From: Candidatus Latescibacterota bacterium
GTDB lineage: Bacteria > Latescibacterota > UBA2968
Length of the DNA: 31,674 bases
NCBI GenBank assembly: GCA_038279365.1
Contig: JAYODI010000070.1
Location: 1-31,674 of the forward strand
Reading direction: 5' to 3'
Of this stretch, positions 497 through 19,029 are shown in pieces. The notes under the pieces are model-generated. The model worked only from the letters and a program-made list of their open reading frames with translations. It did no database searches and was not told the DNA's origin. The position numbers and the translations under genes are program-made. Position 1 is the stretch's first letter. Every line of letters begins with the position of its first letter.

Positions 497-513
497 TTGG
501 CATTGGTGTTGCA
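497..513 (+). promoter_or_regulatory. sigma54 (-24/-12) promoter P1
   Basis: TTGGCATTGGTGTTGCA: GG(499-500)-N10-GC(511-512), matching the YTGGCAC-N5-TTGCW consensus. Confidence 0.75.
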
Positions 514-581
514 TCTGAGTGAGGCAAGTGACATTCTTGTCATGTGTTCCAAGGTGGTGGGTGTTTCTGGGAGGTTCGCTG

Positions 582-1517
582 ATGGTGTATCGCGCTACAG
601 ATGTGATGATTGGAAAGAGTCAGCCCATTCGAGAAGTTTTTAATATGGTTGAACGTGTGGCTTCTTCGAATGCCAATATTTTGATTCAGGGTGAAAGTGG
701 TGTGGGGAAAGAGTTGGTTGCACAAGCGATTCACCGTCAAAGCCCACGCAACAATGCACCTTTTGTGGTGATTGATTGCACGGCTTTGCAAGAGACTTTG
801 CTTGAGAGTGAGCTTTTTGGGCACGAACGCGGTGCTTATACGAGTGCCACCCATTTGAAATATGGGTTGTTTGAGGTTGCCCATGAGGGTGTTGTTTTAC
901 TGGATGAGATTGGCGAGTTGTGCCCCACAATTCAGTCTAAGCTGTTGCGTGTTTTAGAAACGGGCACCTTTCGCCGTGTTGGTGGCACGCGTGATATACA
1001 GGTTGATGTGCGTGTTTTGGCAGCAACAAATCGCAATCTCGATCAATTGGTGACCGAAGGATCTTTTAGAGAAGATTTGTATTATCGTCTTAATGTTGTC
1101 TCCATTCAGGTGCCTCCTTTGCGTGCGCGCCCACAAGATATTCCATATTTGGTGTGTCACTTTATTTCTCGTACAAATCAACATAGGGTGCAAGGTGTGT
1201 CTGATGAAGCAATGGCATTGTTGATGCGTTATCAATGGCCAGGTAATGTGCGAGAGCTCCGCAATATTATAGAGCGTGCGGCGTTGCTGTCTCAAAATAA
1301 GTGTATTCTTCCCGAAGATTTACCCATTGTTTTGAGAAATGGAAATGGGCTACAATCGCATAACAATTGTGGGTTTTATACGTTGAGAGAGGCTGAATGC
1401 AATCATATTGCAAATGTTTTGGCACAAGTTCGTGGACATCGCGCACGCGCTGCAGAGATATTGGGTATTAGTGAACGACAGTTGTATCGAAAGATCAATC
1501 AACACAAATTGCTGTAA
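582..1517 (+). CDS. sigma54-dependent transcriptional activator (AAA+ bEBP with Fis-type HTH), no N-terminal regulatory domain
   Basis: Walker A GESGVGKE, ESELFGHERGAYTSA (GAFTGA-loop variant), Walker B LLDEIGE, FREDLYYRLNV, WPGNVREL and C-terminal HTH (AAEILGISERQLY). Start placed at ATG 582 after GGAGG; the ORF track starts at GTG 519. Confidence 0.93.
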   Translation: MVYRATDVMIGKSQPIREVFNMVERVASSNANILIQGESGVGKELVAQAIHRQSPRNNAPFVVIDCTALQETLLESELFGHERGAYTSATHLKYGLFEVAHEGVVLLDEIGELCPTIQSKLLRVLETGTFRRVGGTRDIQVDVRVLAATNRNLDQLVTEGSFREDLYYRLNVVSIQVPPLRARPQDIPYLVCHFISRTNQHRVQGVSDEAMALLMRYQWPGNVRELRNIIERAALLSQNKCILPEDLPIVLRNGNGLQSHNNCGFYTLREAECNHIANVLAQVRGHRARAAEILGISERQLYRKINQHKLL

Positions 1518-1704: not shown

Positions 1705-1721
1705 TTGGCCTGACTTTTGCA
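1705..1721 (+). promoter_or_regulatory. sigma54 (-24/-12) promoter P2
   Basis: TTGGCCTGACTTTTGCA: GG(1707-1708)-N10-GC(1719-1720), about 50 bp before the next start codon. Confidence 0.7.
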
Positions 1722-1772: not shown

Positions 1773-2141
1773 ATGCCAGATATTCTGGTTGTTGATCGGG
1801 ACTTGAAGTCTTTAGGGGCAATGATACCGCGTATCCATACGTGGGCATATACAGTTGATGTTGCTGAGACATTGCAACAGGCAATAGAAATGTTGGATTT
1901 GCATGCATGTGGTATTGTCATATTAGCTGTGTATGTAGATGACTTTGACGCATCAGATGCAATTGCCACCATTTATCAGGCAAACCCCAAAGCGCGTATT
2001 GTGGCTGTGGGTGATCGGTCGTCGTTAGAATTGGAACGCGCAGTTCGCTTGTCAAAGATCTTTTATTACATGATTCGACCCATAGATTTTGATGAGCTCA
2101 AAGCTGTGGTAAGCCGAGCACTTGAAAAATCCATTAATTAA
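1773..2141 (+). CDS. Stand-alone atypical (pseudo-)receiver domain protein
   Basis: REC-fold pattern (ILVVD..., IVIL, IVAV, YYMIRPIDFDELKAVV). The phospho-acceptor Asp position is Ala (IVILA), the beta4 Thr/Ser is Gly and KP is RP. RBS GGAGG upstream. Confidence 0.8.
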   Translation: MPDILVVDRDLKSLGAMIPRIHTWAYTVDVAETLQQAIEMLDLHACGIVILAVYVDDFDASDAIATIYQANPKARIVAVGDRSSLELERAVRLSKIFYYMIRPIDFDELKAVVSRALEKSIN

Positions 2142-2235: not shown

Positions 2236-3369
2236 ATGAAACGAATGTGTTGGGTTTTTGGGATGGTTTATCTGTTGGGCGTTGTTTGGCCAAGTGGTGT
2301 TCAGGCACAATCGGTGTTGCTCGATGGCAATTTGTCTGCAGGTTATCAAGGTTTGGATGGCTTGGTAGATGTCAAAGCAGGTCAAAGGGTTGCCATAGAG
2401 GTATATGGCAAAGACGTTGCAGGAGTCAGTGGGTTTTCTGCTTTGGTGACCTATTCGGCTACGCAATTGCGTTTTGATGGGTTTTCGGCAGGTTCTCTCA
2501 TTCCTGGTTTCACGGGTTTAAACATTGTTCCATCTGCTGGCCAAATTGAAATTGGCGGTGCTTCCGTGAATGGTACTGCAAGTGTGTCTCAAGGCCGTTT
2601 GGGTGTGATCTATTTTCAAGTGTTAGAAGGTTTTTCGGGTAATGTGGCCGTATCACTCAGCCAAGGTCGCATTGTGAAGGGAGCTGCTTCCGAATCGATT
2701 GATACCCAAGCGCAGGTGGTGGTGGGGTTGGCTGTTTCTGGACCCGTGATGATTGATGGTGATGCCACACCTGGTTTGCAAGCCGCCCGTCGTGTTGTGG
2801 ATGTGAACGTCGGCGATGTCATTTCTGTTGAAGTTTATGGCCGAGGCATTTCAGGGGCATCGGGCTTTTCTGCTATTTTGAGTTATGACAAAGCGCAGTT
2901 GTCTTTTGAAGGGTTTGATGCTACAGAGATTATTCCTGGTTTTACGGGGTTGCGTCTTGATGCGGGTGGTACGGTTGAAATTGGTGGGGCGTCCGTAACG
3001 GGCACTGCCGGTTCGGCTGAAGGTCGTTTGGGTGTGTTGCGCTTTAAGGTGCTTCGGGGCTTTACAGGTACCACGTCTATTGAGTTGGTTGGTGGTCGCT
3101 TGACTTTGGGAGCAGACATCACCAACTATACCAGTGATTTGATTTTGTCTGTTTCGGGCATTGCTGGCGGTGGGCCGCTTGTCAAAACGCCCGATTTTAA
3201 CGGCAATGGTGTTGTTGATTTTCCCGACTTTTTGATGTTTGCTGGCGCTTTTGGCAAAAAGGTAGGGGATGTTGGCTTTCTGGAAGCACTCGATTTGAAT
3301 GACAGCGGTGCCATTGATTTTCCTGATTTTTTAAGTTTTGCCCAACAGTTTGGCAAATCTGTTGGTTAA
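2236..3369 (+). CDS. Secreted protein with two tandem cohesin-like beta-sandwich repeats and a C-terminal dockerin-like double EF-hand
   Basis: Signal peptide (...VQA|QS). Two about 145-aa repeats (VEVYG..G.SGFSA..SY...QL.F.GF.A...IPGFTGL....G..EIGGASV.GTA....GRLGV..F.VL.GF.G). C-terminal DFNGNGVVDFPDFLMFAGAFG / DLNDSGAIDFPDFLSFAQQFG. RBS AGGAGG. Confidence 0.75.
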   Translation: MKRMCWVFGMVYLLGVVWPSGVQAQSVLLDGNLSAGYQGLDGLVDVKAGQRVAIEVYGKDVAGVSGFSALVTYSATQLRFDGFSAGSLIPGFTGLNIVPSAGQIEIGGASVNGTASVSQGRLGVIYFQVLEGFSGNVAVSLSQGRIVKGAASESIDTQAQVVVGLAVSGPVMIDGDATPGLQAARRVVDVNVGDVISVEVYGRGISGASGFSAILSYDKAQLSFEGFDATEIIPGFTGLRLDAGGTVEIGGASVTGTAGSAEGRLGVLRFKVLRGFTGTTSIELVGGRLTLGADITNYTSDLILSVSGIAGGGPLVKTPDFNGNGVVDFPDFLMFAGAFGKKVGDVGFLEALDLNDSGAIDFPDFLSFAQQFGKSVG

Positions 3370-3475
3370 TCGTTTCCTTTTTTTAACGTCCCTACAAAGT
3401 TTGCAACAGCTGTTTTGTTGGGAACGCGAGATATAAGTTGGATCAAGTTGTCACATTTTACGAAGGGGGAATACC

Positions 3476-6184
3476 ATGAGATGGGGCAGGTGGTTTTTAA
3501 GCACGCTTCTGGTCTGTCTAACGCTTAGCCCAATGTGGGCGAGTGATACGCCAGATGAAGAAGTTATTATTATTCGAACGCCTTTAACCCGTATTCAGGT
3601 GGTGGCCGTGGCGCCACGTTTGATTAATGAGGGTTTGGTTGATACGACAATTGTTAAAGGTTCAACCAGTGGTTTACCCATTGTGGGTATTGGTGAACAA
3701 ACGTATGTTGCTGCCGCTGTTGGTGGGCTTAAGGATGTAACAGCATTTACATGGTCGATTACAAGCCAACCCACGGGATCGACGGCAACCTTAGTAGACG
3801 CACCCAAAGTGGGCAAAACATTTACACCCCAAGTAGCGGGTGATTATGTGATTTCATTGAAGATGACCCATGCGGGTGGCGATACCACATTGACCAAAAC
3901 GATTACTGCCGCAACCTATGTGGGTGCAGATCGTTGCGGGCAGTGCCACCCTCAAGCCAAAGCCGATTGGGAAAAAACCAAACACGCGCAAGCTTTGACC
4001 AAAAAGATCAGCGGTTTTCAAACGGGTCATTTCCAAGCGCGTTGTATCAGTTGTCACTCTGTAAGTAGCAACACATCGGCGGTGAATGTGCCCACTGCTG
4101 ATAATGGCAGCTTTTGGGATGTGGCCGCTGATTTGGGTTGGACATTTCCATCAGACTTAACCCAAGGCACGTGGCAAGAAGTGGGTAGTGGCGAAACACC
4201 ATCGGCTAATGCGATTGTTGACGGTGCTTGGAATATTGATCTCAAAAATTCAACATGGGATCAAATGCCAGCCGGGCTTAAAGCCATGGGCAATATCCAA
4301 TGCGAAAGCTGCCACGGTCCTGGTAGTGCTCATGCTGCAGGTGCGTTTGCACAAGCCAATAAGAAAATTGGTGACAGTTTGGAAAATGGTGTGTGTGCAA
4401 AGTGCCATGATGACGGTCACTATCATGTGCGCCCACACGAATGGGATCAATCTGGACATGGAAAAATATGGTCGCGTGACAGTGCCACCTGTGCACCTTG
4501 CCACTTAGGTAGTGGTTATGTACAGTCTGTGGTGAAAGGTCAAGAACTCACACCAGGTAGTTTTGAATTGGGTGTGACACAAACGTGTGCCACATGCCAC
4601 GATCCACACAGTGCAAAAAATGATCATCAAATTCGCGTGGCTGGTGTGGTTACATTAAACGCTTTGGTTCCTGATCCTGCGGGTAATCATACCAATACCA
4701 TCACGTCTTTTACAACACCCGATTTGGGTACAGGTGCCATGTGCGCCCAATGTCACCATTTGCGTCCTACACGTGATGTTCCTGGTGCACGTATTCACCA
4801 TTCGCATCAAGCTGAAATGGTGAATGGTATTGGGGGTTATCACTACCAAGGTGAAATTTATGGTTCGGGCAGTCACAAGTACATGAAAGACGCGTGTGCA
4901 AATTGTCATATGGCAGCCGCACCTGCGGGAACAGATGCCGTGTTGGGTAGCCATTCTTGGAAGATGCATGATGACAATGGTACGCCAGACAACATGGCTG
5001 ATGATCATTACAATACAACCGCGTGTTCAACATGTCATGGGCCACTGCAAAACTTCGATGTGAACGGTGCAACCACCGAAATCGAAGAAATGTTGACGGT
5101 ATTGGGTGGTTTGTTGCCCAGCAGTGGTGCAACAGAAGCTCAAACCAACGCCAAATGGAACCATGATTTTGTTGAAGCCGATGGCACAAATGGTATTCAC
5201 AACTTTGTGTATGCCCGCAAACTGTTGGCCGATGCACTTAAATCTGCCAGCCCCACCACCACACCTGCCCCATTGGCCGGTGACTTTAGTGGTGATGGCA
5301 AAGTAGACTTTACCGATATGTTTATGTTTACCTCGCAATTTGGTAAGAGTGCTTCTTCTACGGGTTGGGATGCGCGTTACGATTTGAGTGGCAACGGCGT
5401 GGTTGGCTTTACCGACTGGTTGATGTTCCTCGACAGCTTTGGCAAAACGTCTGCTTCGGGCAAACCGGTTTTGGTAAACAATGGCCGCAATATGGGTGGC
5501 GACTTTATGTTGGTGGGCTCCAATCGCACAGCCATCGACCAAGATCATATTGGTGTGACCTTGCGTGCGATCAATATGACCGAAATGCGCGGTTATGGTG
5601 TCTATGTCAAATATGACCCACAAGTGCTTGAGTTTGTGCGTGCGGTGCGTTCTGAAGAGGGTATGTTAACATCAGAAAACACTGGTGCATTGGCCGCCCA
5701 AGAAGTAGAAGAAGGTCGTTTGTTGATTGCCGATGCCACGGTTGGTAATGTGGCTGTTAAAGGGTCAGGTGCTTTGGTTGATTTGATTTTCCGTCGCATT
5801 GGCGCAGTTGCCCAATCTTCGGTACAAATTGATTTGGCCCAAATGGCCGACTTGAGCTTTGGCATCAATGTTCCTGGCGCACCGGTTCAGGAAGTTGTTT
5901 CTGCGCGTGAATATGCACTCACGCAAAACTTCCCGAATCCATTTAACCCAGCCACAAGCATTCGTTATAGCCTCGCTGCACCGGGTGATGTGAAGCTTGT
6001 GATTTACAATGCGCTCGGGCAAGAAGTGCGCACATTGGTTGACAACTATAAGTTGTCTGGCGAATATGCCGCGCAGTGGGATGCTCGGGATGAAGCTGGG
6101 CGCGCAGTGGCCAGTGGTGTGTATGTGTATCGCTTAGAGGTCAATGGCTTTATACAAACCCATCGTATGGTGTTGACGCGTTAA
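3476..6184 (+). CDS. Secreted nonaheme cytochrome c with N-terminal Ig-like domain, dockerin-like and cohesin-like modules and FlgD-Ig/T9SS-type C-terminal domain
   Basis: Signal peptide; 9 CXXCH (CGQCH, CISCH, CESCH, CAKCH, CAPCH, CATCH, CAQCH, CANCH, CSTCH); NrfA/c552-family-like tail DGTNGIHN; dockerin-like GDFSGDGKVDFTD / DLSGNGVVGFTD from about nt 5279; cohesin-like GYGVYVKYDPQVLEFV...GSGALVDLIF; C-terminal QNFPNPFNP...IYNALGQEVRTL...WDARDEAG..VASGVYVYRL (5912-6184). Confidence 0.88.
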   Translation: MRWGRWFLSTLLVCLTLSPMWASDTPDEEVIIIRTPLTRIQVVAVAPRLINEGLVDTTIVKGSTSGLPIVGIGEQTYVAAAVGGLKDVTAFTWSITSQPTGSTATLVDAPKVGKTFTPQVAGDYVISLKMTHAGGDTTLTKTITAATYVGADRCGQCHPQAKADWEKTKHAQALTKKISGFQTGHFQARCISCHSVSSNTSAVNVPTADNGSFWDVAADLGWTFPSDLTQGTWQEVGSGETPSANAIVDGAWNIDLKNSTWDQMPAGLKAMGNIQCESCHGPGSAHAAGAFAQANKKIGDSLENGVCAKCHDDGHYHVRPHEWDQSGHGKIWSRDSATCAPCHLGSGYVQSVVKGQELTPGSFELGVTQTCATCHDPHSAKNDHQIRVAGVVTLNALVPDPAGNHTNTITSFTTPDLGTGAMCAQCHHLRPTRDVPGARIHHSHQAEMVNGIGGYHYQGEIYGSGSHKYMKDACANCHMAAAPAGTDAVLGSHSWKMHDDNGTPDNMADDHYNTTACSTCHGPLQNFDVNGATTEIEEMLTVLGGLLPSSGATEAQTNAKWNHDFVEADGTNGIHNFVYARKLLADALKSASPTTTPAPLAGDFSGDGKVDFTDMFMFTSQFGKSASSTGWDARYDLSGNGVVGFTDWLMFLDSFGKTSASGKPVLVNNGRNMGGDFMLVGSNRTAIDQDHIGVTLRAINMTEMRGYGVYVKYDPQVLEFVRAVRSEEGMLTSENTGALAAQEVEEGRLLIADATVGNVAVKGSGALVDLIFRRIGAVAQSSVQIDLAQMADLSFGINVPGAPVQEVVSAREYALTQNFPNPFNPATSIRYSLAAPGDVKLVIYNALGQEVRTLVDNYKLSGEYAAQWDARDEAGRAVASGVYVYRLEVNGFIQTHRMVLTR

Positions 6185-6187
6185 TTT

Positions 6188-6225
6188 AAAAAGCAGGGCA
6201 GGCCAAGGTGCTTGCCCTGCTTTTT
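6188..6225 (+). terminator. Intrinsic terminator
   Basis: AAAAAGCAGGGCAGG ... CTTGCCCTGCTTTTT directly after the cytochrome stop codon. Confidence 0.8.
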
Positions 6226-6302
6226 ATTTGGATCGTGATTTCAAAAACGCCGTATGTGTCTATTGTCTCTGTGATGACAGATGCAACGGCGTTTCACTGT
6301 GA

Positions 6303-6423: not shown

Positions 6424-6440
6424 ATGGCACACAGATTGCG
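6424..6440 (+). promoter_or_regulatory. sigma54 (-24/-12) promoter P3
   Basis: ATGGCACACAGATTGCG: TGGCAC-N5-TTGC, a near-perfect consensus, 35 bp before ATG 6475. Confidence 0.82.
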
Positions 6441-6474: not shown

Positions 6475-7725
6475 ATGCAACGGTTTTGTATCGGTTTATT
6501 GTTCGTTTTGATGCTTGGCATGTCTGCTGAGAGTGCCACATTAAGTGGGCGCTTGACGTCATCGGCCTACTCTTGGCAAGCCCGTGAAGCTGGGGGCAGT
6601 GATGTCCGGCATTTGCGTTTGTATCAGGTTGCAATGCTGAATATGAGCCAAATGGGTGGTCAAGCCTTGTCATTGCACACACATTTGCAATTTTCGGGTG
6701 ACTTGCTCGATGAACGGAATGGGCGTGAACACTATCGCATTTACAGTGCTTATGCCAAGTGGGCACAAAATGGGTGGGATGTGCGCTTTGGCCGTCAACG
6801 TATTTATGGCGGGGTAGGTTTTGGCACCATTGATGGTGGTCGTGCAGCGGTGCAAGCAACCGATTGGTTACAACTCATTGGTTATGCGGGTATGCTTACA
6901 CCCGTGATCCCCGACGATGGCATTGGTACGTGGGATGAAGGGCATTTGTGGGGTGGGCAGGTGATGGTGGATGTGCGTGAGACTTATTTGACCATGAGTT
7001 ATGCTGAGCGCAGTCGTGAACCGCTGGCTTATTTGGGTGCGGGGCGATATTCTCAAGTGTCCATCAATCAAGAGGGTACACAATTTCGCCGATTGGGTTT
7101 TGATGCCCGACACGATTGGGAAAATGCATCGTTGTATGGGCGTGTTGATTTGGATGCCGATGCTTGGTCTGTGCAAGAATTTGAAGTGACAGGTGAGGCG
7201 CAAGTTTCGGATGCCATCGGTTTGGCTGCCGAATTTGAACATCGCAAACCCACTTTGTATCTCAATTCGATCTTGAGCGTGTTTGAAGTTCAAGACAACC
7301 AAGAAGTGGAAATGCGTGCAACCTATAAAGTAAATGATCAAGCCAAAGTATTGTTACGTGGCACACGTTCGTTTTTTGATGGTGATTCGGCATGGCATTT
7401 GGGGGCAGGACTGATTTGGGGGCAGGCTTATTTGGGGTATGCAAGGCGCGTGGGATATGGCGGTGACAACAATTCGTTTACCGCGTCTATCCAACACCCT
7501 GTTAATGAACAGTGGACGGTTCATGCCGATGGCAGTATGGCGAGTTACCGGTTATACGATACACAAGTGTCACGAAATCGGGCATGGACGGGCAGTGCTG
7601 GGGCGCGTTATCAGATGAAAAAAACGTTGAGTTTGGATGTGGAAGCACAAGTTTTAAACAATGCATTTTACAATCGTGATGCACGCATTTTTGTGCGGGG
7701 TTCTTTCTGGTTTTTCAAACGGTGA
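6475..7725 (+). CDS. Outer-membrane beta-barrel, putative porin of a porin-cytochrome conduit
   Basis: Signal peptide (MQRFCIGLLFVLMLGMSAESA); alternating amphipathic beta-strands; aromatic C-terminal strand (IFVRGSFWFFKR); no heme motifs; immediately precedes multiheme genes. Start moved from 6340 to 6475 (RBS GAGGG, downstream of P3). Confidence 0.78.
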   Translation: MQRFCIGLLFVLMLGMSAESATLSGRLTSSAYSWQAREAGGSDVRHLRLYQVAMLNMSQMGGQALSLHTHLQFSGDLLDERNGREHYRIYSAYAKWAQNGWDVRFGRQRIYGGVGFGTIDGGRAAVQATDWLQLIGYAGMLTPVIPDDGIGTWDEGHLWGGQVMVDVRETYLTMSYAERSREPLAYLGAGRYSQVSINQEGTQFRRLGFDARHDWENASLYGRVDLDADAWSVQEFEVTGEAQVSDAIGLAAEFEHRKPTLYLNSILSVFEVQDNQEVEMRATYKVNDQAKVLLRGTRSFFDGDSAWHLGAGLIWGQAYLGYARRVGYGGDNNSFTASIQHPVNEQWTVHADGSMASYRLYDTQVSRNRAWTGSAGARYQMKKTLSLDVEAQVLNNAFYNRDARIFVRGSFWFFKR

Positions 7726-7732
7726 TGATGGC

Positions 7733-8893
7733 ATGAAACAGATGATGCTTTGGATGTTTGTGGCCGTTCTTTCTTTGGGATGGCAAAGTGCTTTGGCACA
7801 AGAACCCTTTGTGCCGTCTACGGCAATTAAATTTAGTCATAAAGACCATGTCGATGCTGCAGAGTTGGAATGTGCGGTGTGCCACGATGTGAGCGAAAGC
7901 ACGTCTGCACGTGATCGCTTATTGCCTGCCAAAGCTGTTTGTGCAGAGTGCCACGATGTAACCGATCAGGATGAATGTGCGTTTTGCCATACTGACATGA
8001 GTCAGTTGGGCAAAATTCAATCGGTTGATTCCGATATCTTGTTTGCTCATAAAGATCACTTAGCTTACGACGGGGTCGATTGTGCCACATGTCATGCAGG
8101 CGTTGAAAAGTCTGTGAAGACGGGTGGGTCGCATATGCCCAATATGCCTACGTGTTCCACATGTCACAACGATGCACAAGCGCCCAAAGCGTGTGCGGCG
8201 TGTCATACCGATTTGAGCAATTTGCGCCCCGAGTCGCATGTTTTGGGCTGGACAAAAGGTCATGGACGGCGGGTGCGTTTGGGCGATACATCGTGTTTAC
8301 CTTGTCATAGTGAACCCGACTGCCAAGAATGTCACGAAGGTGCAAAGTTGACGGTTGCAGTGCCGCCATTGGGCTCACAGGCTACATTTGCCCCACAAAG
8401 CAGCGGGCAGGCGGGTTTGATTTTGAAGAATGTTCATGAATTGAATTATCGTTTTACACATGCTTTAGAAGCCAAAGGCAAAACAAAAGATTGTGCCAAG
8501 TGTCACGAGCAAGATACATTTTGTGCCGATTGCCATCAGGCCGATGTGGGGTTTGTGAAACCCGCTTGGCATGGCGGTGCTGATTGGGGGGCCATTGCAG
8601 GGGCCGTGGGTACAGGCGGTGGTCGCCACGCCACATTGGCTCGGCGCGATATGAATCGGTGTGCATCTTGTCATGCTGCAGTGGGTGATGACCCCACGTG
8701 TATGTTGTGCCATATGGATCGCACACCCGGGTTGGGCAACGACCCTAAGACACATGGACCTCGTTTTAAGTCGCAAGTAGGTGAAGGTGATTTCCACAAC
8801 AATCCCAATTCACTTTGTTTTAACTGTCACACATTTACAGGACCAGCCGGTGGGGCTGGGTTCTGTGGGTATTGTCATGGGCCGCAAAATTAA
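7733..8893 (+). CDS. Periplasmic 14-heme cytochrome c (c3/c7-like N-terminal modules)
   Basis: Signal peptide (..SALA|QE); 14 CXXCH counted; FSHKDH/FAHKDH c3/c7-type His motifs; start at ATG 7733, 7 nt after the porin stop. Confidence 0.9.
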   Translation: MKQMMLWMFVAVLSLGWQSALAQEPFVPSTAIKFSHKDHVDAAELECAVCHDVSESTSARDRLLPAKAVCAECHDVTDQDECAFCHTDMSQLGKIQSVDSDILFAHKDHLAYDGVDCATCHAGVEKSVKTGGSHMPNMPTCSTCHNDAQAPKACAACHTDLSNLRPESHVLGWTKGHGRRVRLGDTSCLPCHSEPDCQECHEGAKLTVAVPPLGSQATFAPQSSGQAGLILKNVHELNYRFTHALEAKGKTKDCAKCHEQDTFCADCHQADVGFVKPAWHGGADWGAIAGAVGTGGGRHATLARRDMNRCASCHAAVGDDPTCMLCHMDRTPGLGNDPKTHGPRFKSQVGEGDFHNNPNSLCFNCHTFTGPAGGAGFCGYCHGPQN

Positions 8894-9953
8894 ATTTATC
8901 GTGCTGTGTGGTTTGGTGGCGTTGGTGGGGTGCAGTGATGTCAAAAATGTACCCACTGGACCGACCACAACATCTGCTTTAAGTGTTCATACACCAGGAT
9001 GGATCAATCCTGCTGCATCTGATTTTCACGGTGCGGCCTTGGCCAAGGTCGGATATGATATGTCGGGTTGTCGAACATGCCATGGTGCAGATTATGCTGG
9101 TGGCATTTCTGAAAGCTCATGTATCAAATGCCACCCTGGCACGCCCGAAGACTGTTCGACCTGTCATGGGCAACCGCCTGCCGCACCGCACCCCCAAGTG
9201 GCCAATTGTAGCTTGTGCCATGGCCAAGTGGTGGATGCATCAGGCACCATTATTGACCCATCGTTGCATATTAATGGTCAGGTCAATGTGCGCTTAGGAC
9301 ATCCGCAAGGCTTTGCCAACCCATCATCGGAGAATTTTCATGGTGTGGCCATTAAGGCGGCGGGTTGGTCGATGGCAGAATGTCAAAGTTGCCACGGGCA
9401 AGATTATCGGGGAGGCGTTGCAAGCGATGTGTCGTGCTTGACGTGTCATCAAAAGAGCCCCGAAGATTGTTCGACCTGCCACGGCGATATGAATAATCCG
9501 GCACCTCCTGAAGATATTGCAGGCAATACGGCAACCACATTGCGCACAGTAGGTGCCCATCAATCGCATTTGTCGGGTGGTTTCTTTGCCGGTGGTATTG
9601 CTTGCTCCGAGTGTCATACGGTGCCCACACATTATCTTGACCCAGGGCATGTGGATTCTGATGAACCTGCCGAAGTCATTTTTGGTGCGTTGGCCAAGAC
9701 CCGTGGTTTAAGCCCTGTTTGGGATGGTGAAACATGCAGCAATACTTATTGTCATGGTTCTGCAAAACCCAAGTGGACGTCTGTTGGCACTGGGGAATCG
9801 ATTTGTTCAACGTGTCATGCCATTCCGCCACCACTTCCACACCCACAAACACAAGTGTCGTGTGCAACGTGTCACCCGCGCGTGGTGGATGAAAATTTGA
9901 TTATTATAGATAAGACCTTGCACATCAATGGTCAGGTAGATGTAGGGCCGTAA
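8877..9953 (+). CDS. Multiheme cytochrome c lipoprotein (10 CXXCH + 1 CX4CH)
   Basis: MGRKIKFIVLCGLVALVG|C lipobox; 10 CXXCH plus CSNTYCH followed by CSTCH (Geobacter-type CxxxxCH...CxxCH module); start overlaps the upstream gene by 17 nt. Confidence 0.88.
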   Translation: MGRKIKFIVLCGLVALVGCSDVKNVPTGPTTTSALSVHTPGWINPAASDFHGAALAKVGYDMSGCRTCHGADYAGGISESSCIKCHPGTPEDCSTCHGQPPAAPHPQVANCSLCHGQVVDASGTIIDPSLHINGQVNVRLGHPQGFANPSSENFHGVAIKAAGWSMAECQSCHGQDYRGGVASDVSCLTCHQKSPEDCSTCHGDMNNPAPPEDIAGNTATTLRTVGAHQSHLSGGFFAGGIACSECHTVPTHYLDPGHVDSDEPAEVIFGALAKTRGLSPVWDGETCSNTYCHGSAKPKWTSVGTGESICSTCHAIPPPLPHPQTQVSCATCHPRVVDENLIIIDKTLHINGQVDVGP

Positions 9954-10003
9954 TACTGTGAAAGATGTGAAGGGTGTCGCATTTCCTAATCAGGAGGTGT
10001 GTG

Positions 10004-11908
10004 ATGAGGCGGTGGACGCTGGGTGGGGTGATGGTGTTGTTGATGGTGGGCATTGTTGGGGCAGAGATTGCGAATGAAGATTGTTTGGAATGCCATAGCG
10101 ATCCTGAACTGACCAATGCGGCAGGACAATTGATGTGGGTTGATCCGGCGCATTTAGAAAAATCGGTGCATGAGGGGTATACGTGTGTGGAATGCCATAC
10201 GTCTATTACCGAGTTGCCTCATGCAGAAGAAGGATTGCCCAAGGTTGATTGCCAAGTGTGCCATGAAGAGGCGCAAGAAGTTTTTGAAACCAGTGCACAC
10301 GGGCTTGCGGTGGCACGCGGTGATGAAGATGCGCCCAATTGTGCAGATTGCCATGGCAGCCATGGTATTTTGGCGGTGGACGATACGGAATCGGCTGTGT
10401 TTCACCAAAATTTGGTGTATATGTGCGCGCGTTGTCATGCCAACACCACGATGAATGAAACACACAAATTTTCTGTTGAGGCACCCGTTGAAGCTTATTG
10501 GCAAAGCACGCATTTTCGCAATTTAACAGACAGCAAAAAGCATTATGCCGATTGTGTCGATTGTCATGGTAGCCATGGTTTAAAGGCTGCATCAGATCCT
10601 TCGTCAACCATCTTTTGGCGCAATATTCCACAAACATGTGGCAAGTGTCACAGTGATATTCAACATACGTATCAGGCCAGTGTTCATGGCAAAGCTGTAG
10701 ATCGAGGTGTGCGCCAATCGCCTGTGTGCACAGACTGTCATGGCGAGCACGAAATTCGTGGCCCCAAAGACCCCAAGTCGTTGGTAAATAAAGCGCATGT
10801 TTCTGAAACAACATGTGTGTGGTGCCACGAGTCGGTGCGTGTGACACAAAAGTTTGGGTTGGCACAAGGGCGCATGCAGACCTATTTGGATAGTTACCAC
10901 GGTTTGGCCAACAAGGGTGGGTCAACGGTGGTGGCCAATTGTGCCAGTTGTCATGGTGTGCACGATATTTTGCCCTCAACTGATCCCGCCTCTTTGATTC
11001 ACAAAGATCGCTTGGGTGAAACGTGCGGCAAATGCCATCCAGGTGTGGGCAATTTGGTGTCGTTGGGGCCCGTGCATGTGAATATGACGTATGAGAATGG
11101 TGGCAGCAATATCACCGATTATGTGCGTCAGTTTTATATGTTGCTGATTTTGTCTACCATCGGTTTTATGTTGGTACACAACGGGTTGGATTTGGCACGC
11201 AATTTTAGGTTGCGCGAAGGACTGCCCCACGGTGATGATTTTTTGCGGTTTACCGTTTCAGAACGTTTACAACATGCCACCATGGCGTTGTCATTTATGG
11301 TGCTGGCCTATAGTGGATTTGCTTTGCAATTTCCCAATGCGTGGTGGGCAGCACCGTTTGGTGGGTGGTTGTCTGAGAGTGAAGAGCTTCGTCGTTTGAT
11401 TCACCGTTTTGCGGCTGTGGCGATGGTGGGTGTTTGTGGGTTTCATGCTGCATATTTGGTTGTTACTGGGCGTGGGCGACAACAGTTGATGGCGATGGCA
11501 CCCAAGCTACGCGATTTTCGCGATTTTGGCCAGATGGTGCGTTACTACCTCAAGCGAACAGACAAACAACCCCGATTTGCACGTTTTAGTTATATCGAAA
11601 AGTTAGAATATTGGGCGCTGGTGTGGGGCAGTGTGGTGATGACGGTGACGGGGTTTGCACTTTGGTTTGCAAATATCTCGTTGCGTTATGTGCCCAAGTG
11701 GGTGTTGGACGTTGCCACGGTGATTCATTATTACGAAGCGTGGTTGGCAGTTTTGGCCATTATTGTGTGGCATTTTTACTGGGTGATTTATAACCCGCGT
11801 GTTTATCCAATGAGTTTGGTGTGGTTGACTGGGCGTATGTCGAAGAAGGCCATGGAACACGAACATCCTGAAGAGTTGGAAGAAGAGAAGAAGCGAATAG
11901 ACGAATAG
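10004..11908 (+). CDS. CbcL-like inner-membrane quinol oxidoreductase: 11-heme c domain fused to an FdnI/HydC-type diheme cytochrome b
   Basis: 11 CXXCH, then about 5 TM helices with cytochrome-b His motifs (ERLQH, RLIHRF, GFH, VIHYYE, VWHFY) and RFSYIEKLEYW; RBS AGGAGG before ATG 10004. Confidence 0.85.
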   Translation: MRRWTLGGVMVLLMVGIVGAEIANEDCLECHSDPELTNAAGQLMWVDPAHLEKSVHEGYTCVECHTSITELPHAEEGLPKVDCQVCHEEAQEVFETSAHGLAVARGDEDAPNCADCHGSHGILAVDDTESAVFHQNLVYMCARCHANTTMNETHKFSVEAPVEAYWQSTHFRNLTDSKKHYADCVDCHGSHGLKAASDPSSTIFWRNIPQTCGKCHSDIQHTYQASVHGKAVDRGVRQSPVCTDCHGEHEIRGPKDPKSLVNKAHVSETTCVWCHESVRVTQKFGLAQGRMQTYLDSYHGLANKGGSTVVANCASCHGVHDILPSTDPASLIHKDRLGETCGKCHPGVGNLVSLGPVHVNMTYENGGSNITDYVRQFYMLLILSTIGFMLVHNGLDLARNFRLREGLPHGDDFLRFTVSERLQHATMALSFMVLAYSGFALQFPNAWWAAPFGGWLSESEELRRLIHRFAAVAMVGVCGFHAAYLVVTGRGRQQLMAMAPKLRDFRDFGQMVRYYLKRTDKQPRFARFSYIEKLEYWALVWGSVVMTVTGFALWFANISLRYVPKWVLDVATVIHYYEAWLAVLAIIVWHFYWVIYNPRVYPMSLVWLTGRMSKKAMEHEHPEELEEEKKRIDE

Positions 11909-12038: not shown

Positions 12039-13544
12039 ATGAATACGAAACGTTTGCCCGATATATTTTATAACTGGTGGAGTGTTGTTGGTGCTTTTGT
12101 TGCTGTCGCATCTTTTTGCGTGATTGTGCTTTTGTTATTGATAGATATTTTTGTTCAAGGCACCACACTTTATTTGGGCTTGTTGACGTTTATGATTTTG
12201 CCTAGCTTTTTGGTGGCTGGGTTGGTGATGATTGCATTGGGTGCGGTATTAGAGCGTCGTCGCATTGCACGCGGGGTTGTTTCTACCTTTCCAAGACAAC
12301 TGAATATTGATTTTGAAAATGCCAAGCATCGCAATGCAATTGTGATTTGGACGATTGGAACGGCTATTTTTTTATTGGGTACGGCTATTGGTACTTATAA
12401 AGCCTATCAGACAACGGAGTCGGTTGTGTTTTGTGGTGAGTTGTGCCACAATGTGATGTCACCCGAATACACAGCCTATCAAGTTTCTCCCCATGCCAAT
12501 GTATCTTGTGCAGAATGTCATATTGGGCCAGGGGCTGAGTGGTTTGTAAAGGCCAAGTTGAGTGGTTTGCATCAGGTCTATGCGGTCTTGACAGATTCAT
12601 ATCAAAAGCCAATTCCAACACCCATTGAAAATTTGCGCCCAGCACGTGAAACGTGTGAACATTGTCATTGGCCCGAAAAGTTTTTTGGTGGGCGTCAAAA
12701 GATATTGCCCCATTTTTTATCCGACGAAGAAAATACACCCTATCCCATTTCTATGCTTTTAAATATTGGTGGGGGCGGAAAAGGTGGCCACGCCGAAGGG
12801 ATTCACTGGCATGTGGCAAAGAGTCATCATATGGAGTACATTGCAACAGATCATGATCGCAAAGATATTGTGTGGGTGCGCTTGACCAAAGACGATGGCT
12901 CTGTGGCCGAATATACAATGGGTGGAAAGCCGTTAGAAGCCGAGCTGAAAACAGCCCATGCACCTCGTTCTGTAGATTGTTTGGATTGCCACAATCGCCC
13001 GAGTCATAATTATCGCTCGCCTATTAAAATAGTTAATCAGGCATTGCACTTGGGTAATATGGATGTGTCTTTGCCCTATATTAAACGCGAGGCCGTGACG
13101 GTTCTGGATAAGGTGTATGAAACAACACCCGATGCCATGCAGGCGATAGAGGCACATCTCACAAAGTTTTACAAAGACGAATATCCCGATTTGTTGAAAG
13201 AAAAGTCGGATGCTGTAACAAAGTCGATCGCGGCTGTTCAAAAGGTGTATCGCGAAAACTTTTTTCCTGAGATGAAGGTGTCTTGGAAAGCCTATCCCGA
13301 TCAAGTAGGACATTCAGAATTTATTGGGTGTTTTCGTTGTCACGGATCTGAGTTGGAAACGGCAGATGGTGGCACAATCAGTAAGGATTGTAATTTGTGC
13401 CACACTATTTTATCGCAGGGGACAAAGGATTTTGCCGCTTTGAGGCCGGGAGGGATAACCTTTCGTCATCCGGTGGATATTGATGGGGCAGAATTGGAGG
13501 CCAATTGCACAGAATGTCATGAAGGTGGCTCAGAATTGTATTGA
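12039..13544 (+). CDS. imcH: ImcH-like heptaheme inner-membrane cytochrome (NapC/NirT-family N-terminus)
   Basis: Three N-terminal TM segments; NapC/NirT-like FCGELCH...SPHANVSCAECH...KAKLSGL...CEHCH; 6 CXXCH + 1 CX3CH = 7 hemes in 501 aa, matching the Geobacter ImcH architecture. Confidence 0.78.
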   Translation: MNTKRLPDIFYNWWSVVGAFVAVASFCVIVLLLLIDIFVQGTTLYLGLLTFMILPSFLVAGLVMIALGAVLERRRIARGVVSTFPRQLNIDFENAKHRNAIVIWTIGTAIFLLGTAIGTYKAYQTTESVVFCGELCHNVMSPEYTAYQVSPHANVSCAECHIGPGAEWFVKAKLSGLHQVYAVLTDSYQKPIPTPIENLRPARETCEHCHWPEKFFGGRQKILPHFLSDEENTPYPISMLLNIGGGGKGGHAEGIHWHVAKSHHMEYIATDHDRKDIVWVRLTKDDGSVAEYTMGGKPLEAELKTAHAPRSVDCLDCHNRPSHNYRSPIKIVNQALHLGNMDVSLPYIKREAVTVLDKVYETTPDAMQAIEAHLTKFYKDEYPDLLKEKSDAVTKSIAAVQKVYRENFFPEMKVSWKAYPDQVGHSEFIGCFRCHGSELETADGGTISKDCNLCHTILSQGTKDFAALRPGGITFRHPVDIDGAELEANCTECHEGGSELY

Positions 13545-13577: not shown

Positions 13578-14129
13578 ATGAAACGGTGGAAAAAAGGTTT
13601 TTGGATGGCGGTATCGCTTTTGGTGATTCCGACACTGGCCTCTGGAGATGATGTGGCAGAAAAGCCACAATATATTGGTTCTGAATCTTGTGCAAAGGTG
13701 TGTCACAAGACGGCCAAGCAAGGTGAACAGTTGCGCATTTGGCAAGAATCATCCCATGCCAAAGCGTGGGAAACCTTGGCGAGTGAGAAGGCGCTTGCTA
13801 TTGCCAAAGCCAAAGGTATTGCAGATCCGCAAAAGAGTGATCAATGTGTAAAATGCCACACAACTGCACATGGGGTTGCTGCCGATTTGTTAGATGCAAA
13901 GTTTTCACATACCGAAGGTGTGGGATGTGAATCTTGCCACGGTCCAGGGAGTTTGTATAAAAAACGCAGTGTGATGCAAAATCGCGAAGCGGCTGTGGCT
14001 GCTGGTTTGTTGCTTCCCGATGAAAAAACCTGTGTGAAATGTCATAATGCAGAAAGCCCAACATTTAAACCGTTTAATTATGAAGAACGGTGGAAACTGA
14101 TTGCGCACGGAAAACCTGCCGCAGAATAG
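13578..14129 (+). CDS. Periplasmic tetraheme cytochrome, c554-like
   Basis: Signal peptide; YIGSESCAKVCH (CX3CH), W..S.HAKA, CVKCH, GVGCESCHGPGS, CVKCH. Confidence 0.85.
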   Translation: MKRWKKGFWMAVSLLVIPTLASGDDVAEKPQYIGSESCAKVCHKTAKQGEQLRIWQESSHAKAWETLASEKALAIAKAKGIADPQKSDQCVKCHTTAHGVAADLLDAKFSHTEGVGCESCHGPGSLYKKRSVMQNREAAVAAGLLLPDEKTCVKCHNAESPTFKPFNYEERWKLIAHGKPAAE

Positions 14130-14148: not shown

Positions 14149-14188
14149 AAAGAGGGGTTACATCTTGTCGATGTAACCCCTCTTTTTT
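14149..14188 (+). terminator. Intrinsic terminator ending the EET operon
   Basis: Perfect 16-bp stem AAAGAGGGGTTACATC/GATGTAACCCCTCTTT plus T-tail. Confidence 0.88.
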
Positions 14189-14362: not shown

Positions 14363-14449
14363 TGGTGCCGAAGGAGGGAATCGAACCCACACGTCCCGAA
14401 GGACACTGGATTTTGAATCCAGCGCGTCTACCAGTTCCACCACTTCGGC
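14363..14449 (-). tRNA. tRNA-Leu (anticodon CAA)
   Basis: GCCGAAG...CTTCGGC-ACCA acceptor stem, anticodon arm CTGGA-TTCAAAA-TCCAG, long variable arm, TTCGA T-loop; 87 nt. Confidence 0.96.
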
Positions 14450-14524: not shown

Positions 14525-15091
14525 TTAAAAAGGCATGTTTTCAGATCTGGGTGGGCCCAGAATCTCATTGTAAACAATGGCTTGGCGAACACTTTGTTTA
14601 GAAAAGTCCAGTTTTAACCTCTGTTTACGCTTTGTTTTGGGTTTTATGGTCTGTTTTAAACGTGACAGGCGGCTATTGGGGTCATTTTCATTATAGGCCA
14701 AAGATTCCTCTATGGGGCGTTTAGCGCGCACGGTTTGAAATTCTGGGCCTTTTGGGGTTTCGTGCACGGGCCTCTTGCCCTGTATTTCACGGAATTCTGG
14801 GCCTTTGGCAGACTCATCAACAGATATTTTGCCTTTTACCTCTTGAAATTCTTGAACAACGGGCTTGGGTTCGGGCTTTTTTTCTTTTTGAGGCGCACCT
14901 AAGAGAATTTCCCACTCCGATAGGTCTACATCTTCTTCAAATGGGTCATTGCGACCGACTTGTGTGGATGGATGTTTGCGCTGTAGTTTGGATTCATCGG
15001 GTTCTGGGTTGCGATGTTCTTGCCATTTTTTGAAAAGGGTTGAAATGGCACTAAAGAGCAAGAATAAGACAACAAGTATTTGGGCATCCAT
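14525..15091 (-). CDS. YqfB-like membrane-anchored hypothetical protein
   Basis: N-terminal TM helix (MDAQILVVLFLLFSAIS), low-complexity middle, C-terminal RQAIVYNEILGPPRS; third gene after nfeD-floA. Start placed at ATG 15091. Confidence 0.65.
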   Translation of the reverse strand: MDAQILVVLFLLFSAISTLFKKWQEHRNPEPDESKLQRKHPSTQVGRNDPFEEDVDLSEWEILLGAPQKEKKPEPKPVVQEFQEVKGKISVDESAKGPEFREIQGKRPVHETPKGPEFQTVRAKRPIEESLAYNENDPNSRLSRLKQTIKPKTKRKQRLKLDFSKQSVRQAIVYNEILGPPRSENMPF

Positions 15092-15198
15092 AAGATTAGT
15101 CCAGGGAGAGCAATAAAAGATAATGGTGTAAAGCGTTTTAACCGTGAAATGAGCAAGAGGTGACAATGGGATGTGTTCCCGTTGTCACCTCTGATTAT

Positions 15199-16173
15199 CT
15201 ATTGATTGTCTTCTTCGGTTTCATCTGCAATGCCTTCACGCATGCTGGTGTCGGCTTGGATATTGCGCATGCGATAGTAATCCATAATGCCCAAGTTGCC
15301 ACTGCGGAACGCTTCTGCCATGGCACGGGGTACTTCGGCTTCAGCTTCAACCACGCGGGCGCGCATTTCTTGCACGCGAGCTGTCATTTCTTGTTCTAAT
15401 GCAACGGCCATGGCGCGGCGTTCTTCGGCACGGGCCTGAGCAATATTTTTATCGGCTTCGGCCTGATCCATTTGCAATTTGGCCCCAATGTTGTCACCCA
15501 CATCCACATCAGCAATATCGATGGAGAGAATTTCAAATGCGGTACCTGAATCTAAACCTTTGTTCAAAACTGTTTTTGAAATCATATCGGGGTTTTCTAA
15601 GACCGATTTGTGTGTTTCTGCTGACCCGATGGTGGTGACAATGCCTTCACCTACGCGGGCCATGATGGTCTCTTCACCTGCACCACCCACCAATCTTTCA
15701 ATGTTGGCACGCACTGTAACGCGCGATGTGGCTTTGACCTGAATGCCATCTTTGGCCACGGCGGTGACCATGGGTGTGGAGATGACTTTGGGATTGACGC
15801 TTACTTGTACGGCTTCGAGCACATCTCGGCCAGCAAGGTCGATGGCAGCGGCACGCTCGGGGGTGAGGTTAATGCCGGCTTTGTCGGCGGCAATGAGGGC
15901 TTTGACCACATTTTCAACATCGCCACCGGCCAAAAAGTGGGCTTCGAGAAAGGCGGTCGAAATTTCCAAACCCGCTTTGGTGGCGTTGATTTGAGAGCCT
16001 AAGATGGTGCTTGGAGGCACACGGCGCAAGCGCATCCCAACGAGTTCGCCAATGCCAATGTGAACGCGTGCGGCAATGGCGGAAATCCAGAGGCCTACTG
16101 GAATGAAGTAAAGGAAGATGGATAAAAGTAAAAATCCACCAATGACGATGAGTAACAGTAAGACGGCTTCCAT
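15199..16173 (-). CDS. floA: Flotillin-like protein FloA (YqfA/UPF0365)
   Basis: [73 protein letters not shown]. Confidence 0.93.
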
Positions 16174-16263
16174 TGATCATATCTCCTAAAGAGGCCAGGG
16201 ATTACAGGTCAAATGCTTTGTTTCTGACCTGTGACTTGCAGACCTGTGACTTACGACTGTTGT

Positions 16264-18953: not shown

Positions 18954-19029
18954 GGCGGCATAGCTCAGTTGGTAGAGCAGCGGAATCATAATCCGTAGGT
19001 CGGGGGTTCAAGTCCCTCTGCCGCTACCA
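18954..19029 (+). tRNA. tRNA-Met (anticodon CAT, probably elongator)
   Basis: GGCGGCA...TGCCGCT-ACCA acceptor, anticodon arm GCGGA-ATCATAA-TCCGT, TTCAAGT T-loop; 76 nt; lacks initiator C1:A72 and the three G-C pairs. Ile2 cannot be fully excluded. Confidence 0.93.

Follow-up and report, generated by a model that had tools for sequence, protein, structure and literature searches.

A cohesin-dockerin adaptor beside an OcwA-fold nonaheme cytochrome in a Latescibacterota genome: a candidate scaffolded surface reductase

Bacteria are known to fix cytochromes to their surface with lipid anchors, through association with the wall or by polymerising the cytochrome itself. The window analysed here, a 31,674-nucleotide contig of a Candidatus Latescibacterota bacterium, raises the question of whether a respiratory cytochrome can be held at the cell surface by cohesin-dockerin modules. 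Predicted folds, gene pairing and sequence classes suggest, at roughly even odds, a terminal reductase plugged into the cohesin-dockerin surface network of its lineage by a dedicated adaptor, with up to two cytochromes per adaptor. If true, nature would here have put cellulosome-style assembly to respiratory use; the locus would also supply a cohesin-dockerin pair that is new and possibly orthogonal, and a means of modular cytochrome display for engineered electroactive cells.

The adaptor-cytochrome unit and the downstream operon

Features of the unit and of the stretch upstream of it, with signal peptides of adaptor and cytochrome judged by eye, are as follows (window coordinates):
498..512, +, sigma54-type -24/-12 motif 5' of the gene for the activator (motif scan; putative function)
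519..1517, +, sigma54-dependent activator with AAA and HTH_8 and no receiver domain, start uncertain (domain search)
1706..1720, +, sigma54-type motif that probably drives the receiver, adaptor and cytochrome genes (motif scan)
1773..2141, +, stand-alone receiver domain, gene probably opening the unit (Response_reg at 31.4 bits against a cut-off of 30.2)
2236..3369, +, adaptor, 377 aa: Sec-type signal, cohesin, cohesin, dockerin; no hemes, no C-terminal sorting domain (CTD)
2311..2730, +, adaptor cohesin 1, adaptor-specific class (fold, sequence class)
2743..3159, +, adaptor cohesin 2, adaptor-specific class (fold, sequence class)
3184..3360, +, adaptor dockerin, type-II-like, generic consensus of the genome (sequence match, alignment)
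3476..6184, +, nine-heme cytochrome, 902 aa: signal, Ig-like domain, OcwA-fold core, dockerin, cohesin, T9SS-type CTD
3581..3916, +, Ig-like beta-sandwich at the N-terminus, kept throughout the family (model, alignment)
3917..5251, +, nonaheme core of OcwA/OmhA fold, with three helices at its end (predicted fold)
5273..5455, +, cytochrome dockerin, private signature (alignment)
5483..5893, +, tail cohesin, pre-CTD class (Pfam, fold, sequence class)
5909..6181, +, FlgD-Ig/T9SS type A CTD (FlgD_ig, TIGR04183, fold)
6187..6226, +, intrinsic-terminator-like hairpin followed by U's, 3' of the cytochrome gene

The preliminary description drew a two-gene unit running from a promoter "P2", a label to which it gives no definition, to a terminator. 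A terminator-like element is there, a hairpin of -28.5 kcal/mol (z -5.1) that none of 200 shuffles matched. Sigma54-type motifs are enriched (8 against 2.8 expected; 0/100 shuffles) and, since the nearest one upstream precedes the receiver gene, the transcription unit probably holds three genes (receiver, adaptor, cytochrome) under a sigma54-type promoter rather than two. No exact counterpart of the motif at 1706-1720 lies upstream of the adaptor in genomes G002 or G054. Sigma70-like promoters were rejected, their 12 sites against 12.3 expected being at chance level. Contigs from three RNA runs of two studies fall on the locus (best X1), and one 176-base contig of X2 bridges the adaptor-cytochrome gap; contigs of this kind say nothing on whether the genes are transcribed, from which strand or together, and the shares in X2 and X3 are small.

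Beyond the hairpin lie the following features:
6425..6439, +, sigma54-type motif ahead of the conduit operon, shared with G002 (motif scan)
6475..7725, +, putative outer-membrane beta-barrel; start placed by RBS within an ORF open from 6340
7661..8893, +, 14-heme cytochrome, probably in the periplasm (domain search, motif count)
8781..9953, +, cytochrome with 10 CxxCH and 1 CxxxxCH, lipoprotein-like signal by eye
9974..11908, +, 11-heme cytochrome fused to cytochrome b (domain search, motif count), a layout we take to be CbcL-like
12039..13544, +, NapC/NrfH-like membrane multiheme cytochrome, 6 CxxCH and 1 CxxxCH
13578..14129, +, c554-like tetraheme cytochrome, 3 CxxCH and 1 CxxxCH
14151..14183, +, terminator-like hairpin closing the operon (hairpin scan)

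By gene content this resembles a porin-cytochrome-type operon. As in MtrCAB and the Geobacter Pcc conduits, a putative barrel gene is flanked by multihemes and quinol-oxidising membrane cytochromes; in those systems, however, the terminal protein is a decaheme lipoprotein, whereas here it has the OcwA fold and a CTD, and the barrel has no Pfam or NCBIfam family. The nearest Atlas clusters of the barrel are unnamed (0.98), and the nearest named ones are beta-barrels (0.92). MtrC is exported by the T2SS. Electrons would pass from the quinol-oxidising membrane cytochromes to periplasmic multihemes, through the barrel and on to the surface.

Modules of the adaptor and fold of the cytochrome

The description of gene 1 as a heme-free protein with two cohesins and one dockerin is upheld by its coordinates, Pfam Cohesin, predicted fold and closest PDB sequence. 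No CxxCH motif is present; Pfam Cohesin covers two stretches (49.4 bits, cut-off 24.1), and the repeats, 48% identical to each other, take a cohesin fold in the models (best match 2vo8, VIA Z 16.1, rmsd 2.3, 129 aligned), with cohesin entries in all 18 top VIA rows. The dockerin falls below the Pfam cut-off (18.7 against 22.9 bits), and its best PDB sequence match is the cellulosomal dockerin 2Y3N_B (E 1.2e-10). Domain searches and predicted folds likewise agree on gene 2 as a nine-heme cytochrome (9 CxxCH motifs) with a dockerin, a cohesin and a FlgD-Ig/T9SS tail. Its Dockerin_1 (18.2 bits) and tail Cohesin (20.4 bits, cut-off 24.1) scores are under the Pfam cut-offs, and the tail cohesin fold (VIA Z 9.7, rmsd 3.1, 113 aligned, many cohesins tied) is weaker than that of the adaptor. 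The dockerins align with Asp at loop positions 1 and 12 of both repeats, and each of the two models contains two dockerin helices. The sorting domain exceeds the cut-offs of FlgD_ig (35 bits, cut-off 27) and TIGR04183 (33.9 bits, cut-off 23) and is structurally PorU-like (Z 9.5), in keeping with T9SS type A cargo (PorU, PorZ and mirolase CTDs).

The cytochrome had been set beside MtrC and OmcS, a comparison that gives way to another, as the predicted core has the fold of a characterised class of surface terminal reductases, OcwA of Thermincola potens (6I5B; Z 14.7, rmsd 3.5, 333 aligned) and OmhA of Carboxydothermus ferrireducens (6QVM; Z 14.1), at about 25% identity. It shares with both the core fold and a C-terminal three-helix bundle (helices 529-546, 554-567 and 574-591 in the model), and with OcwA the nine CxxCH motifs, set in a c554+NrfA-like core. 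Exactly six non-motif His are invariant in 51/51 alignment rows and fit six bis-His hemes. OcwA was already placed among nonahemes from Gram-negative bacteria in PMC7829351. MtrC itself was rejected as the closest relative: PF22113 is over its cut-off but the best fold match is OcwA, and the protein has nine motifs, not the ten hemes of MtrC/OmcA, and no lipobox by eye.

A core of this fold might also serve a surface or periplasmic enzyme rather than a mineral reductase, with two open hemes reducing or detoxifying nitrite, NO or hydroxylamine and the scaffold holding the enzyme. OcwA has two penta-coordinate hemes and nitrite/NO/hydroxylamine-type activities in vitro (PMC6703420, PMC9250108), including reduction of nitrite and hydroxylamine (PMC6703420). 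The invariant His are consistent with this, as are the c554-like and NrfH-like genes of the operon and the His-His pair 441/442, which aligns with the OmhA pair. Of the two distal His-His sites of the penta-coordinate hemes, the first is Tyr316-His317 here; the model holds no hemes. For His/Met ligation of heme 9 there are candidate Met only, M479 (50/51 rows) and M497 (40/51 rows). We nevertheless consider such an enzyme very improbable, given that the export tail, the barrel and the partners with 10-14 hemes suit a chain that delivers electrons to the outside, and that both OcwA and OmhA sit at the surface and have been linked to the reduction of iron or electrodes (PMC6703420, PMC7829351).

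Pairing of the adaptor with the cytochrome

The conserved synteny proposed as a check is present, the adaptor lying directly upstream of a dockerin-bearing cytochrome in 3/3 genomes (G000, G002 and G054, the last from another order). An adaptor is tied to 10 of the 18 cytochrome orthologue clusters; 16 adaptor/cytochrome pairs share a source and lie on contigs of exactly equal size, P0127 and P0202 have consecutive source locus tags, and the pairs P0226/P0018 and P0227/P0016 surfaced only after a cohesin-only profile search. The remaining eight clusters have no tied adaptor, four of them on contigs roomy enough (P0012, P0013, P0017, P0019). A search for long adaptors (661-2000 aa) returned no scorer though such proteins exist, and is uninformative. 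P0223 (7 cohesins), P0225, P0228, P0229 and P0242 ranked high in the cohesin search, but none of their cohesins scores above 80 bits against the adaptor profile; they were rejected as adaptors and treated as scaffoldins of another kind, and no contig with a cytochrome could be tied to any of them.

The cytochrome dockerin bears a private signature, namely a non-Phe residue at position 13 of repeat 1 and Trp648 at position 13 of repeat 2. This Trp is found in 38/38 cytochrome rows against 0/202 heme-free rows, in one of 57 dockerin rows of the source genome (the cytochrome itself) and in 0/55 rows of relatives, top scorers of the cytochrome-dockerin profile included. On that profile, held-out orthologues score 72-124 bits against at most 67 for others, the circular 134-bit scores of the three training dockerins having been set aside. 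Mean identity among orthologues is 68% for the dockerin, 69% for the CTD and 56% for the core, and the dockerin's departure from the lineage consensus is fixed across orthologues down to 44% core identity. The adaptor cohesins also stand apart, 20/20 grouping together without any of 73 others (SH 92, unstarred), and the held-out G054 cohesins score 119-127 bits on the adaptor-cohesin profile against at most 88 for non-adaptor cohesins. These classes point to the adaptor cohesins as the likely partner of the cytochrome dockerin.

Complex prediction, another of the proposed checks, was run on adaptor cohesin 2 and the cytochrome dockerin, and its score of 0.46 (best control 0.01) supports the pair weakly, in a range (0.60 or under) that holds only 18 of 157 solved pairs and both mismatched pairs to reach the mark, out of 116/157 and 2/215, respectively. 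At least 97% of contacts recur between runs, and partner pLDDT is at least 82; since similar complexes are already solved, the prediction may be memory. Binding is proposed on co-occurrence and sequence classes, with weak support from the model. Co-inherited neighbours would also form sequence groups of their own.

Dockerin-bearing cytochromes form one clade (15 rows, one change, SH 100), so that co-occurrence and the Trp signature amount to one evolutionary event. Outside this clade no dockerin, cohesin or adaptor accompanies the family in 86 ORFs at 75 further loci, nor does Pfam Cohesin or Dockerin occur in its long tails (0/45); the heme core is found in 16/168 phylum genomes, against cohesin-dockerin matches in 67/132 class genomes. 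A general lack of the adaptor and modules in homologous loci, which the preliminary description would have counted against itself, is thus seen at family level, and makes the modules a lineage-specific add-on, not a requirement of the cytochrome family. Searching metagenomes with the full-length alignment gave no new dockerin-bearing cytochrome locus among 79 (5 detailed), the search being swamped by CTD matches.

It had also been cautioned that the modules might be generic appendages, and the genome bears this out in part: it encodes 54 proteins with a dockerin, 15 with a cohesin and 28 with a CTD, six other, unrelated proteins end in dockerin-cohesin-CTD, and dockerins also occur on subtilase, sulfatase, lyase-like, peptidase and Ig/ASH adhesin proteins (40/57 module-bearing proteins scanned). 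The tail would then be a mobile export or anchoring cassette with promiscuous binding and the adaptor a co-inherited neighbour, in line with the bare family loci outside the single clade. We regard this as unlikely, because the cytochrome dockerin departs in a fixed manner from a near-unbroken lineage consensus, and because the distinctive adaptor-class cohesin pair is kept in short and long adaptor forms.

The real partner of the cytochrome dockerin could instead be a tail cohesin, its own or that of another cytochrome, giving a clasp or the head-to-tail chains of the preliminary description, which the adaptor would cap or branch. Cytochrome tail cohesins, with the tail cohesin of the G054 adaptor, form a supported group and keep invariant residues, and the dockerin-cohesin linker has low confidence in the model and is possibly flexible. 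Such self-pairing seems rather unlikely, as the tail cohesin belongs to a generic pre-CTD class that heme-free proteins also carry, its closest relative adjoins a generic dockerin in the G054 adaptor, and the adaptor's special cohesins would be left without a partner.

Export and attachment to a wider network

Of the T9SS genes proposed as a check, SprA (TIGR04189 261 bits, cut-off 200; also in 5/5 relatives) and PorV (4/5 matches over cut-off) are there, along with a PorU-like C25 protein with a CTD (259.6 bits against a cut-off of 420, partial sequence). GldM and GldN gave no match in the genome, in a search that gave none in control genomes either. Outside Bacteroidota, T9SS is described as only possibly present (PMC11285876). 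The nonaheme would mature in the periplasm and then leave by SprA/PorV-type export through its CTD.

In the preferred reading, of a reductase tethered through its adaptor, the distinctive dockerin and the two distinctive cohesins would join up to two cytochromes to one adaptor, whose generic dockerin would engage a cohesin of the wider network carrying hydrolases and adhesins. The reductase would thereby be tethered and clustered, in a Ca-dependent manner by analogy with known dockerins. Counted against it are the generic modules in the genome, the single clade, the 8/18 untied clusters, the conserved residues that the cytochrome tail cohesin has for itself, the reduction of nitrite and hydroxylamine by OcwA in vitro, and the unmatched GldM and GldN. 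The adaptor, lacking a CTD, has no evident T9SS route, which is also counted against this reading.

The layout resembles that of cellulosomes. Duplicated Ca-loop/helix dockerins are shared with cellulosomal type II pairs (2Y3N, 4U3S/4WI0), and tandem cohesins with a terminal dockerin with adaptor scaffoldins (ScaA dyad 3L8Q, among the top fold matches), the cohesin models matching types I, II and III about equally. Cellulosomes, however, carry glycoside hydrolases, whereas here the cargo is a respiratory cytochrome with Gram-negative export and no carbohydrate-binding module (CBM). The locus has neither a scaffoldin with a CBM nor plant-cell-wall hydrolase cargo, domain search finding no CBM in the adaptor, and no glycoside hydrolase family appears at E 1e-6 among the 40 module-bearing proteins scanned. 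The 2015 Latescibacteria paper (PMC4454575) mentions scaffoldins zero times. Further parallels are putative non-cellulosomal surface scaffolds in Ca. Stygibacter (Cloacimonadota, PMC8542988), with a CTD-bearing scaffoldin-like protein, and in ANME archaea and partner SRB (PMC9012536, PMC5244752, PMC10553843); in the passages covered of these four papers, hydrolases, transporter binding proteins or S-layer domains serve as cargo, unlike the multiheme cytochrome here, and no dockerin fused to a multiheme cytochrome is described. The role of dockerins and cohesins in multiheme-cytochrome adhesion on which PMC5244752 speculates becomes testable with four small heme-free domains.

The conductive lattice envisaged earlier is speculative, since the adaptor has no hemes. 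A more elaborate "electrosome", which we judge quite improbable, would use two orthogonal cohesin-dockerin codes to build a branched mesh in which adaptor and cytochrome alternate, with hemes close enough for hopping. Each adaptor would bind two cytochromes by the private code, and each cytochrome tail cohesin the generic dockerin of a further adaptor, packing nonahemes densely on or beyond the outer membrane and connecting them with the network of hydrolases and adhesins. Having no CTD, the adaptor may then exit by riding on a CTD-bearing cohesin partner, as may 41 dockerin-only proteins of the genome.

Modules of the adaptor and the cytochrome

The window, which is the entire contig C57 of a 6.0-Mb genome (G000), carries a heme-free adaptor gene followed by a multiheme cytochrome gene:

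2236-3369, + strand: gene 1 (adaptor), 377 aa, zero heme motifs
3476-6184, + strand: gene 2 (cytochrome), 902 aa, nine CxxCH motifs

Close homologues (P0005, 76% identity; P0127, 73%) are labelled Ca. Latescibacterota in their source records. In Pfam and NCBIfam searches, both cohesins of gene 1 scored over cut-off and its dockerin under it; in gene 2, the dockerin and cohesin scored under cut-off, and FlgD_ig and TIGR04183 over it. The weak domain calls are confirmed by predicted structures, in which the adaptor repeats adopt cohesin folds (Z up to 16.1). Among PDB sequences, 2Y3N_B, a dockerin from a cellulosome, matches the adaptor dockerin best (E 1.2e-10); in a profile search, the type II X-dockerin 4U3S came next. 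The cohesin and dockerin modules that a preliminary description had read on both genes, and the FlgD-Ig/T9SS-type C-terminal sorting domain (CTD) on gene 2, are borne out.

Evidence for a dedicated pair

Sequence evidence suggests that adaptor and cytochrome form a dedicated pair. The adaptor lies directly upstream of the cytochrome in 3/3 genomes with the dockerin-bearing form (G000 and the relatives G002 and G054), as cohesin-cohesin-dockerin in G000 and G002 and as three cohesins-dockerin-cohesin-CTD in G054. Contigs of identical size and the same source are indirect evidence of linkage for 16 adaptor/cytochrome record pairs, many of them near-identical strains and one possibly repeating a locus already counted; two include long adaptors (P0226, P0227) recovered only by a cohesin-only profile search. 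When full-length orthologues are clustered at 90%, 10 of 18 clusters are tied to an adaptor; the eight untied clusters comprise four on 3-4.5 kb contigs and four on longer contigs (P0012, P0013, P0017, P0019), for which 10 of 150 hits were looked up.

In dockerins of this lineage, position 13 of each repeat is almost invariably Phe, and the adaptor's own dockerin is of this generic type. In 38/38 rows of the cytochrome dockerin, the Phe of repeat 1 gives way to Met/Leu/Ile/Val and that of repeat 2 to Trp, a residue found there in 0/202 heme-free rows. The adaptor cohesins (n=20) form a group separate from 73 other cohesins (SH 92, unstarred; 92/96 on 46 rows, unstarred) and share a conserved Gly/Ser/Ala-rich strand set, and the cytochrome tail cohesin groups with cohesins preceding the CTD in heme-free proteins. 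The dockerin-bearing cytochromes form one clade, so that pairing and signature evidence count as one event, and the divergence together of linked genes limits the pairing, dockerin and cohesin evidence alike.

Complex modelling lends weak support to binding of the cytochrome dockerin by adaptor cohesin 2, with a score of 0.46 (best control 0.01), contacts agreeing in at least 97% between runs and partner pLDDT of at least 82. The mark was reached by 116/157 solved and 2/215 mismatched pairs, although only 18 of the 157 solved pairs, and both mismatches, reached it with scores of 0.60 or lower, and look-alike complexes are already solved.

The alternative, raised as a caveat in the preliminary description, is that these modules are common generic appendages. 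The modules are indeed generic in this genome: dockerins occur in 54 of its proteins, cohesins in 15 and CTDs in 28, with a dockerin-cohesin-CTD ending in six proteins besides the cytochrome and a dockerin alone in 41; scanned cargo (n=40) includes subtilase, sulfatase, chondroitinase-B-like, heparinase-like, M10 and M28 peptidase and many Ig/ASH proteins. It would not readily account for the adaptor pairing, the private dockerin or the private cohesins. Within the class, the cohesin-dockerin module has matches in 67/132 genomes, some holding nine-cohesin scaffoldins (L257), and dockerins in 90/132; no publication on such a lineage-wide system was found. Scaffoldin-like proteins of relatives with tandem cohesins and a dockerin include L257 3463-8970 (nine; G018), L258 6947-10570 (four; G030) and P0223 (seven).

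Distribution, export and published record

The OcwA-fold family is spread over many phyla: 75 of 78 fetched GTDB loci have an ORF of at least eight hemes on the core, and 35 of their 86 family ORFs carry a CTD. Lineage profiles found dockerin or cohesin in none of the ORFs of the 78 loci, and Pfam found neither in the 45 of 80 tails searched, the remainder being two dockerin-bearing, 32 short and one duplicate. The heme core is present in 16/168 phylum genomes, 13 of which have a cytochrome and neighbours devoid of dockerin or cohesin in the 16 fetched stretches, several of which terminate near the gene and three of which hold six-heme forms. Stygiobacter electus strain 09-Me, whose CTD-tailed nonaheme (L044 9971-12118) has no dockerin, is a possible cultured host for T9SS export tests of the family.

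Of the T9SS that the preliminary description proposed to look for, G000 encodes SprA, several copies of PorV and a C25 protein resembling PorU, together with one secretin; GldM and GldN were not found in searches in which no positive control gave a signal. The adaptor itself has no CTD, and adaptors of three relatives have their own. Most dockerin proteins of G000, including sulfatase, lyase-like proteins and peptidases, are without a T9SS-type CTD, and two proteins (C80, C104) carry cohesin-CTD only. Proteins of the latter kind may carry the CTD-less dockerin proteins out of the cell, or these may be retained in the periplasm.

We regard the cohesin- and dockerin-carrying cytochrome as genuine and partly new: the surface reductase class and the plug-and-socket modules are known, and their combination was not found described. 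A full-text search, with most subscription journals and the survey of non-cellulosomal modules by Peer et al. 2009 (which could list such fusions) outside its scope, returned no dockerin-bearing multiheme cytochrome or adaptor, and zero matches for Latescibacteria with cohesin and dockerin; literature joining dockerin, cytochrome c and extracellular electron transfer concerned methanotrophic archaea, among the matches listed. Neither fusion nor adaptor is described in the portions covered of PMC9012536, PMC10553843, PMC5244752, PMC8542988, PMC6703420, PMC9250108, PMC7829351, PMC11323493, PMC7399161, PMC11285876, PMC13608581, PMC11708057 and PMC4454575. The covered part of PMC9012536 lacks 'multiheme' and 'CXXCH', with no multiheme domain in the first 10 places per term of its S4 Data, and that of bioRxiv 10.1101/2025.05.29.656830 has no mention of dockerin, cohesin or T9SS.

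Electron-transfer neighbours, proposed assembly and regulation

The cytochrome core resembles OmhA by sequence (E 5.7e-4), and its predicted structure matches OcwA and OmhA in Foldseek (E 2.4e-8 and 2.2e-7) and OcwA, OmhA and MccA in structure comparison (Z 14.7, 14.1 and 9.2). Six non-motif His, invariant in 51/51 aligned relatives, fit the six bis-His and two open hemes given for OcwA in the part of PMC6703420 covered. The genes downstream encode a putative barrel, cytochromes with 14 and with 10+1 hemes, a fusion of an 11-heme cytochrome to cytochrome b, and NapC/NrfH-like and c554-like proteins. G002 retains all six; G054 retains the first three, after which its contig stops. The putative beta-barrel (6475-7725; unnamed family) adjoins multiheme genes, and has homologues in L053 and L197 beside CTD-tailed nonahemes without dockerin. 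In P0023, P0026 and L062 9785-13777 (16 CxxCH), the entire Ig-plus-core unit is tandemly duplicated within one chain, a covalent core pairing that parallels the proposed two cytochromes per adaptor.

Most likely, electrons from quinol would pass through the membrane cytochromes and the periplasmic ones and reach the surface by way of the barrel, and the CTD would direct the folded nonaheme out through SprA. There, the adaptor's private cohesins would bind the private dockerins of two cytochromes, and its generic dockerin would link the cluster to the general network. If the cytochrome tail cohesin accepted the adaptor dockerin, for which about 50 other dockerins could compete, an alternating branched mesh would result, not the head-to-tail chain proposed earlier. 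With no hemes in the adaptor and the dockerin attached to the helix bundle, conduction would need extra core-to-core contacts, and direct hopping would call for heme edges no more than about 14-20 A apart; a conductive lattice is unsupported and in our view improbable.

The two-gene unit of the preliminary description stands at its 3' end, where a terminator-like hairpin directly follows gene 2. Sigma54-type motifs number 8 in the window against an expected 2.8; those at 498, 1706 and 6425 each precede a gene block, which probably makes the receiver gene 1773-2141 the first of the unit. In G002 (L033 14992-19784), ferredoxin-type membrane redox-like genes, judged by eye from N-termini, lie upstream of the adaptor in place of the receiver and sigma54 activator. 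The distribution is patchy (1/30 other genomes of the family), and a tRNA-Leu(CAA) (14363-14449, - strand) just past the electron-transfer block could mark an insertion site; the fetched stretches of G002 and G054 contain no tRNA. Beyond it lie:

14525-17607, - strand: NfeD-FloA (flotillin) operon, ordinary
18954-19029: tRNA-Met

The motifs at 19239-19253 and 1706-1720 are near-identical (TGGCCTGAC...TTGC), the latter preceding the receiver gene and the former a GAF-PAS hybrid histidine kinase (19339-21960), whose signal might reach both the stand-alone receiver and the activator that lacks a receiver domain.
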